A stretch of 64,000 nt of DNA from Escherichia coli (GTDB lineage Bacteria > Pseudomonadota > Gammaproteobacteria > Enterobacterales > Enterobacteriaceae), in assembly GCF_044647545.1 (NCBI RefSeq), contig NZ_CP172818.1; one strand, given 5' to 3'. How positions within the stretch are numbered: position 1 is the stretch's first letter; every line of letters begins with the position of its first letter. The notes under the pieces were generated by a model. That model saw only the letters and a list, made by a program, of their open reading frames with translations. It had not been told where the DNA came from and did not search any database. The position numbers and the translations under genes are program-made. Of the stretch, positions 13,851 through 13,913 are shown piece by piece.

Positions 13851-13913
13851 CTGTTCATATCTGTTCATATTCTGCCGTAAGCCGTTCATCCTGACCAGTG
13901 CCGCTGTTCATAT
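13851..13913 (+). promoter_or_regulatory. tor boxes: four decameric direct repeats (ctgttcatat x3, ccgttcatcc) upstream of torC
   Basis: Repeats at 13851-13860, 13861-13870, 13882-13891, 13904-13913 in the torR-torC intergenic region. Confidence 0.85.

Follow-up and report, generated by a model that had tools for sequence, protein, structure and literature searches.

The stretch of Escherichia coli DNA analysed in this work (64 kb in its full length, referred to as the window) carries a tor locus in which torR and torC are read divergently from a spacer of 129 bp, with torA, torD, torT and torS nearby. All six tor genes were matched by NCBIfam equivalog models far above cut-off, and their coordinates, strands and products are as follows:

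9324-12056, minus strand: torS, hybrid sensor kinase phosphorylating TorR (NF008543, 1892 bits; start taken from the K-12 annotation).
12139-13167, plus strand: torT, periplasmic TMAO-binding protein (NF008185, 492 bits).
13140-13832, minus strand: torR, response regulator of the OmpR/PhoB family that binds the boxes (NF008034 equivalog, 425 bits, cut-off 275).
13962-15134, plus strand: torC, pentahaem c-type cytochrome, first gene of the regulated operon (NF011606, 878 bits).
15134-17680, plus strand: torA, TMAO reductase (NF011682, 1617 bits).
17677-18276, plus strand: torD, TorA-specific chaperone (NF003442, 264 bits; start set by K-12 homology).

TorR of the window is 99.6% identical to K-12 TorR, the coding genes for TorR, TorS and TorT are apparently intact as judged by full-length equivalog matches, and the RefSeq annotation of matching genomes agrees with torR and torC as the flanking genes. 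At the 3' end of torS (window ~9339) a 1-nt indel relative to K-12 was observed; the last residues of TorS are ...WLIRKT in the window and ...WLHKKDLNAI in K-12, which leaves the protein four residues shorter, and the change lies beyond the last conserved positions of the model and is probably neutral. The best match to the window over 401 bp was found in E. coli 510016 (NZ_CP025851.1; locus L130, 17959-19468), in which IS1A stands in place of torS and most of torT, and torR, the boxes and torCAD remain without the sensor; torS and torT of the window being intact, the window derives from a strain other than E. coli 510016. Elsewhere in the window, matches at the Rfam gathering score were obtained for a cspA-type thermoregulator leader (7184-7606), naRNA4 just after torD (18288-18366), Ysr251 (41178-41371), a tRNA (49624-49708) and the ES056 sRNA (55309-55400).

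The torR-torC spacer holds all four of the following decamers, which are direct repeats in torC orientation:

13851-13860, plus strand: tor box 1, CTGTTCATAT, the distal half of the TorR high-affinity site, equal to the published box (PMC9239176) and kept in orthologous spacers.
13861-13870, plus strand: tor box 2, CTGTTCATAT, in tandem with box 1 (gap 0), the 10-bp spacing being kept in six of six spacers found through TorC homology (see below).
13882-13891, plus strand: tor box 3, CCGTTCATCC, matching at 7/10 positions and of low affinity according to PMC9239176.
13904-13913, plus strand: tor box 4, CTGTTCATAT, the promoter-proximal site, whose end lies 8 bp ahead of the torC -10 hexamer.

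Measured from start to start, the boxes are spaced by 10, 21 and 22 bp, and the order read along the window is ...CATT CTGTTCATAT CTGTTCATAT TCTGCCGTAAG CCGTTCATCC TGACCAGTGCCG CTGTTCATAT TTACTCATTAAGAT... The first-pass annotation, made from the letters, had placed four decamers at 13851-13913 between divergent torR and torC and had likened them to the known TorR-binding architecture. Direct reading of the sequence gave exactly this number and span, the equivalog matches for both flanking genes bore out the placement, and the likeness held, since the decamers equal the published tor boxes and the region is identical to K-12.

Copy number and arrangement of the decamers were compared with chance expectation and with shuffled sequence. 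The decamer CTGTTCATAT occurs three times in the 64-kb window, each time in the torR-torC spacer, against an expectation of 0.12, and three or more copies were seen in 0 of 100 shuffles. The degenerate form CYGTTCATMY has five matches in the window (0.66 expected), four of them being the boxes and the fifth an isolated match on the minus strand inside torA. Scored as the sum of four decamers at 10/21/22 spacing, the spacer reached 37 of 40, with shuffles giving a mean of 18.5 and a maximum of 25 (0 of 2000 reached 37), and a repeat finder independently picked up the tandem pair of box 1 and box 2 as well as the relation of box 3 to box 4. Because the second box repeats the first perfectly and in tandem, an origin of the array by chance or by slippage, with no regulatory role, was also weighed; the excess of copies over chance expectation speaks against it, and conservation bears on it further below.

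Matches to the tor box with one mismatch were also collected outside the spacer; the six found in the window (3.4 expected in total) are all isolated and were treated as chance, which fits TorR as a single-target factor (PMC5934670). Two one-mismatch matches, both TTGTTCATAT, lie at 41740-41749 on the minus strand and 41832-41841 on the plus strand, inverted, about 90 bp apart and near the Rfam Ysr251 match; this pair probably arose by chance as well, TorR reportedly having a single genomic target.

Alignment with the characterised torC promoter, which the first-pass annotation had proposed as a check, showed no difference from the E. coli K-12 MG1655 spacer between the torR start codon and the end of box 4. 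The three positions that differ from K-12 all lie downstream of box 4 (A for G at 13916, T for C at 13948 and C for T at 13957), with 13916 between box 4 and the -10 hexamer and 13957 in the 5' leader. Position 13916 is polymorphic, A (as in the window and in the O157:H7 strain PV15-279) being found in 1029 of 5426 complete genomes and G, the K-12 allele, in 4387.

Across E. coli, a 401-bp stretch around the spacer was present in 5416 of 5426 complete genomes and was always annotated torR/torC. The 63-bp box region was 100% identical in 5100 of the 5415 genomes holding it, the other 315 differing at one to three positions, and the surrounding 401 bp were at least 99% identical in 2068 genomes only; the constraint on the operator is thus no weaker than that on the flanking coding DNA, with the qualification that the two identity thresholds are not strictly comparable. 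Ten of the 5426 genomes are without the tor region, six tor-spacer matches fell on records labelled as plasmids, and some genomes hold two copies. Among variant alleles, box 3 of E. coli MS21324 reads CTGTTCATCC, shifted towards the consensus. In E. coli JNEC-KY204 (NZ_AP045180.1, 3280678-3280855) a clean 10-bp deletion has removed one of the tandem boxes and box 3 reads CCATTCATCC, a form also found in other E. coli genomes; boxes 1, 2 and 4 carry no substitutions in either of these two alleles. The three-box allele was the only single-piece full-length match of its kind among the matches listed and appears to be a singleton among complete genomes. The deletion may have arisen by slippage or may reflect an assembly error; impairment of the high-affinity site would be its expected effect.

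To follow the operator between genera, one genome per species was scanned with the pattern TGTTCATANNTGTTCATA (16 specified bases), which returned at least 120 loci, about 140 being expected by chance in 298 Gb. Among the matches listed, eight were real tor loci with the pattern between torR and torC, namely those of E. albertii, E. coli, Salmonella enterica arizonae, Enterobacter ludwigii, two Edwardsiella and two Providencia. In the alignment of these eight loci, boxes 3 and 4 and a TAAGAT/TAAAAT hexamer are conserved, and no indel occurs from box 1 to the hexamer. Boxes 1 and 2 were themselves the search pattern, so that their conservation in this set is circular; a second set was therefore built through TorC homology, and it is this set that counts for them. 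It consists of six loci picked by TorC protein similarity alone (50-77%), from Serratia, Pantoea, Pragia, Budvicia, Photobacterium and Aeromonas.

All six loci of the second set have torR and torC in divergent order, and all six spacers hold four boxes at 10/21/22 spacing, the best combination in each scoring above 2000 of 2000 shuffles. A -10 element of the form TAnnnT, 8 bp after box 4, is likewise kept in all six. Majority-base fractions were calculated without gaps, anchored on box 1, for the window and five of the TorC-homology loci (Pragia was left out), and gave the following values:

Box 1: 0.85.
Box 2: 0.83.
Spacer between boxes 2 and 3: 0.53.
Box 3: 0.75.
Spacer between boxes 3 and 4: 0.71, unusually high for a spacer.
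Box 4: 0.87 (0.87 to 0.91 across genera), the most conserved segment.
The 8 bp between box 4 and the -10 hexamer: 0.60.
The -10 hexamer: 0.78.
Flanks: 0.51 to 0.54.

Decamer positions 4 to 7 (TTCA) are each kept in 23 or 24 of 24 boxes, and the segment from box 1 to the -10 hexamer is free of indels in 12 of 13 species. The boxes are clearly better conserved than the flanks at orthologous loci. An origin by chance or slippage, for which the loss of exactly one copy from a single E. coli genome might also be cited, as replication slippage would produce such a loss, has to account for four boxes, a spacing and a TTCA core that persist between diverging flanks from Escherichia to Photobacterium and Aeromonas, and published TorR binding data oppose it as well. 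It is effectively refuted by the conservation, and we give it next to no chance of being correct.

Several features of other tor loci were recorded in the course of this comparison. Pragia fontium has five boxes (locus L126, 2355-2439) set 10, 21, 21 and 22 bp apart, the extra box lying two helical turns before box 3. Providencia vermicola apparently has three tandem boxes, at a locus that ends before the whole spacer is visible. A second TorC lineage was found among the proteins P0019 and P0095-P0120, including a TorC named for E. albertii that is 82% identical to the query, beside a 98% copy in locus L005, and TorC proteins of 377 aa from Citrobacter and Salmonella diarizonae form a group that shares ~51% identity with the query; the divergent TorC groups suggest that paralogous tor operons may exist.

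Promoter elements and leader signals of the spacer were read as follows, those of torR being candidates proposed from the letters:

13922-13927, plus strand: -10 hexamer of the torC promoter, TAAGAT, with T13922, A13923 and T13927 invariant in the TorC-homology alignment.
13934, plus strand: predicted torC transcription start (+/-1), placed from the -10 position only.
13952-13956, plus strand: torC Shine-Dalgarno sequence AGGGG, 5 nt before the ATG, with GG kept in the eight-locus alignment of the pattern scan.
13869-13874, minus strand: candidate torR -10, CAGAAT, overlapping the end of box 2 and partly conserved.
13892-13897, minus strand: candidate torR -35, TGGTCA, 17 nt from the candidate -10, with box 3 filling most of that gap.

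The three invariant bases of TAAGAT correspond to T-12, A-11 and T-7 in the usual numbering of a -10 hexamer, and box 4 stands at a fixed distance from the hexamer in 13 species. The torC -10 has been located within TTGCT(n4)AAGAT (PMC10845959). With a start at 13934, as the position of the hexamer predicts, the boxes would fall at about -83/-74, -73/-64, -52/-43 and -30/-21. A consensus promoter and terminator scan of 13780-14000, which requires a -35 to call a promoter and therefore passed over TAAGAT, gave zero matches and no sigma-70 site, so both transcription starts in the spacer are given as predictions. Such an outcome is expected for an activator-dependent promoter, and a site such as box 4 that replaces the -35 just before the -10 is the usual layout of promoters activated by PhoB-type regulators. 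The candidate torR promoter (TGGTCA/CAGAAT) scores 8/12, which is weak and under the threshold of the consensus scan; it would put the torR start near 13862, inside box 2, and box 1 and box 2 reportedly cover the torR start according to the Ansaldi 2000 abstract. Over the window, Rfam at the gathering threshold returned nothing in the torR-torC spacer or the torC leader, which leaves a known leader riboswitch without support.

Two further candidates near the boxes were rejected. A possible fifth box, TTACTCATTA, set 10 bp further on from box 4 at 13914-13923, was dropped, its TCAT core not being conserved outside Escherichia; the region is part of an 18-nt repeat with 83% identity to the pair of box 1 and box 2. 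A perfect direct repeat of 10 nt, TTTACTCATT, brackets the boxes (13841-13850 and 13913-13922) and was likewise set aside as a functional element: it needs the A allele at 13916, the downstream copy in K-12 reads TTTGCTCATT, and it is not conserved outside Escherichia. The repeat is probably fortuitous. Its downstream copy and box 4 together resemble a degenerate tandem pair.

The same operator could be occupied with another stoichiometry, in which three head-to-tail TorR dimers fill a lattice of six positions at ~10.6 bp (13851, 13861, ~13871, 13882, ~13892 and 13904) and boxes 3 and 4 are each the downstream half-site of a dimer. Regulators of the OmpR/PhoB type normally sit on tandem half-sites as dimers, the distances of 10, 21 and 22 bp fit multiples of ~10.6 bp, and the extra box of Pragia fontium adds one more step of 21 bp. 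The spacer between boxes 3 and 4 is also more conserved than spacers usually are, as such a lattice would have it, but this would be equally explained by the candidate torR -35 on the other strand, and the two 'empty' positions of the lattice in E. coli have no tor-box match of 6/10 or better. We regard this arrangement as a minority reading, unlikely though with a real chance of being right.

Published work attaches the boxes to TorR. Boxes 1, 2 and 4 have been published as CTGTTCATAT and box 3 as CCGTTCATCC, of low affinity (PMC9239176). In genomic SELEX with TorR, the K-12 chromosome showed one peak only, located in the torR/torCAD spacer, both with and without acetyl phosphate and more strongly with it (PMC5934670). 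A passage of PMC5294996 that cites Ansaldi 2000 describes the high-affinity sites as held by both unphosphorylated and phosphorylated TorR, which keeps RNA polymerase off the promoter. That the boxes serve mainly another protein, either another member of the OmpR family, for instance ArcA, or the DndCDE phosphorothioation complex of dnd+ strains, which recognises GTTC/GAAC, was considered on the grounds that the torC promoter has been suggested to contain ArcA-like motifs and TorR and ArcA are members of one family (PMC10845959), that ArcA is the second-best NCBIfam match of TorR, and that in Salmonella Cerro 87 DndCDE binds the tor boxes and competes with TorR (PMC9239176). When tested, however, the torCAD promoter was bound by TorR-P and not by ArcA-P or FNR (PMC10845959), and DndCDE bound more weakly (Kd 4.0-6.2 uM, against 0.97-3.11 uM for TorR), as an overlay on TorR control rather than a replacement of it (PMC9239176). 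A main role for another protein is accordingly judged very improbable.

The four decamers are thus read as the TorR operator of the divergent torR and torCAD promoters of Escherichia coli, at a probability of roughly 0.96. For this reading the present analysis supplies the sequence and position of the boxes, their identity to K-12, their non-random nature and their deep conservation; binding, affinity order, autoregulation and TMAO dependence are established and were taken from the literature on the identical K-12 boxes. According to Simon et al. 1995 and Ansaldi et al. 2000, TMAO induction of torCAD and autorepression of torR both reportedly require the boxes, autoregulation being independent of TMAO, and binding is said to depend on helical phase, with boxes 3 and 4 filled cooperatively.

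On this basis, the operator may be expected to work as in the established model. TorR, a regulator of the OmpR/PhoB type, would read the direct repeats, and the tandem of box 1 and box 2 would be permanently occupied, at high affinity, whether TorR is phosphorylated or not. Because this tandem overlies the putative torR promoter and start, TorR bound there would repress torR (negative autoregulation). When TMAO is bound by periplasmic TorT, TorS would phosphorylate TorR, and phospho-TorR would then also occupy the weaker boxes 3 and 4, aided by TorR already present on box 1 and box 2; the spacings, being close to whole helical turns, would bring the boxes to roughly one face of the helix. Bound at box 4 and ending 8 bp before TAAGAT, TorR would replace a recognisable -35 and recruit RNA polymerase to torCAD.

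Given the identity to K-12, the annotation is correct but ordinary: these are textbook tor boxes, the element is already known in full, and the mechanism gains nothing new. Since a real cis-element, characterised by experiment, was recovered at its exact coordinates by a reader that had no tools, the case serves as a positive control for the scan. In the cross-genus data the operator and the torC -10 stand out as a clean phylogenetic footprint, and the natural variants could be put to use in operator-dosage studies; the nature of the element is unchanged by either. If there is comparative novelty here, it lies in the indel-free 10/21/22 lattice and fixed -10 distance from Escherichia to Photobacterium and Aeromonas, with copy-number and point variants that could tune the induction threshold or torR autoregulation between lineages, a proposal that we consider less likely than not. 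As to how new the operator lattice across genera and its natural copy-number and point variants are, they make only mildly new material.

Compared with the K-12 torR-torC region of Simon et al. 1995 (PMID 8596446) and Ansaldi et al. 2000 (PMID 10648521), the window shares the four boxes, both spacers, the torR-proximal flank and the gene order torS-torT-torR-torCAD. The torCAD promoter of Salmonella Cerro 87 has the same box sequences as the window (PMC9239176), and the competition by DndCDE is a feature of dnd+ Salmonella. In the locus of Salmonella enterica subsp. arizonae (L081) the spacing is unchanged and CTGTTCATAT is the sequence of boxes 1, 2 and 4; the differences are in box 3 (CCGTTCATTC), at several spacer positions and in TorR, which is 82% identical. 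The pho boxes of PhoB and the sites of OmpR are direct repeats of ~10 to 11 bp read head-to-tail, the proximal site replacing the -35. Unlike these sites, the tor operator combines a tandem pair with two single boxes two helical turns apart, and a single set of sites acts on two divergent promoters, to opposite effect. For torECAD of Shewanella oneidensis, Bordi et al. 2004 reportedly described a direct repeat core of the TTCATA type read by the same regulator family, the TorR site there being said to consist of one pair of repeats, located well upstream from the promoter, and not of four boxes.
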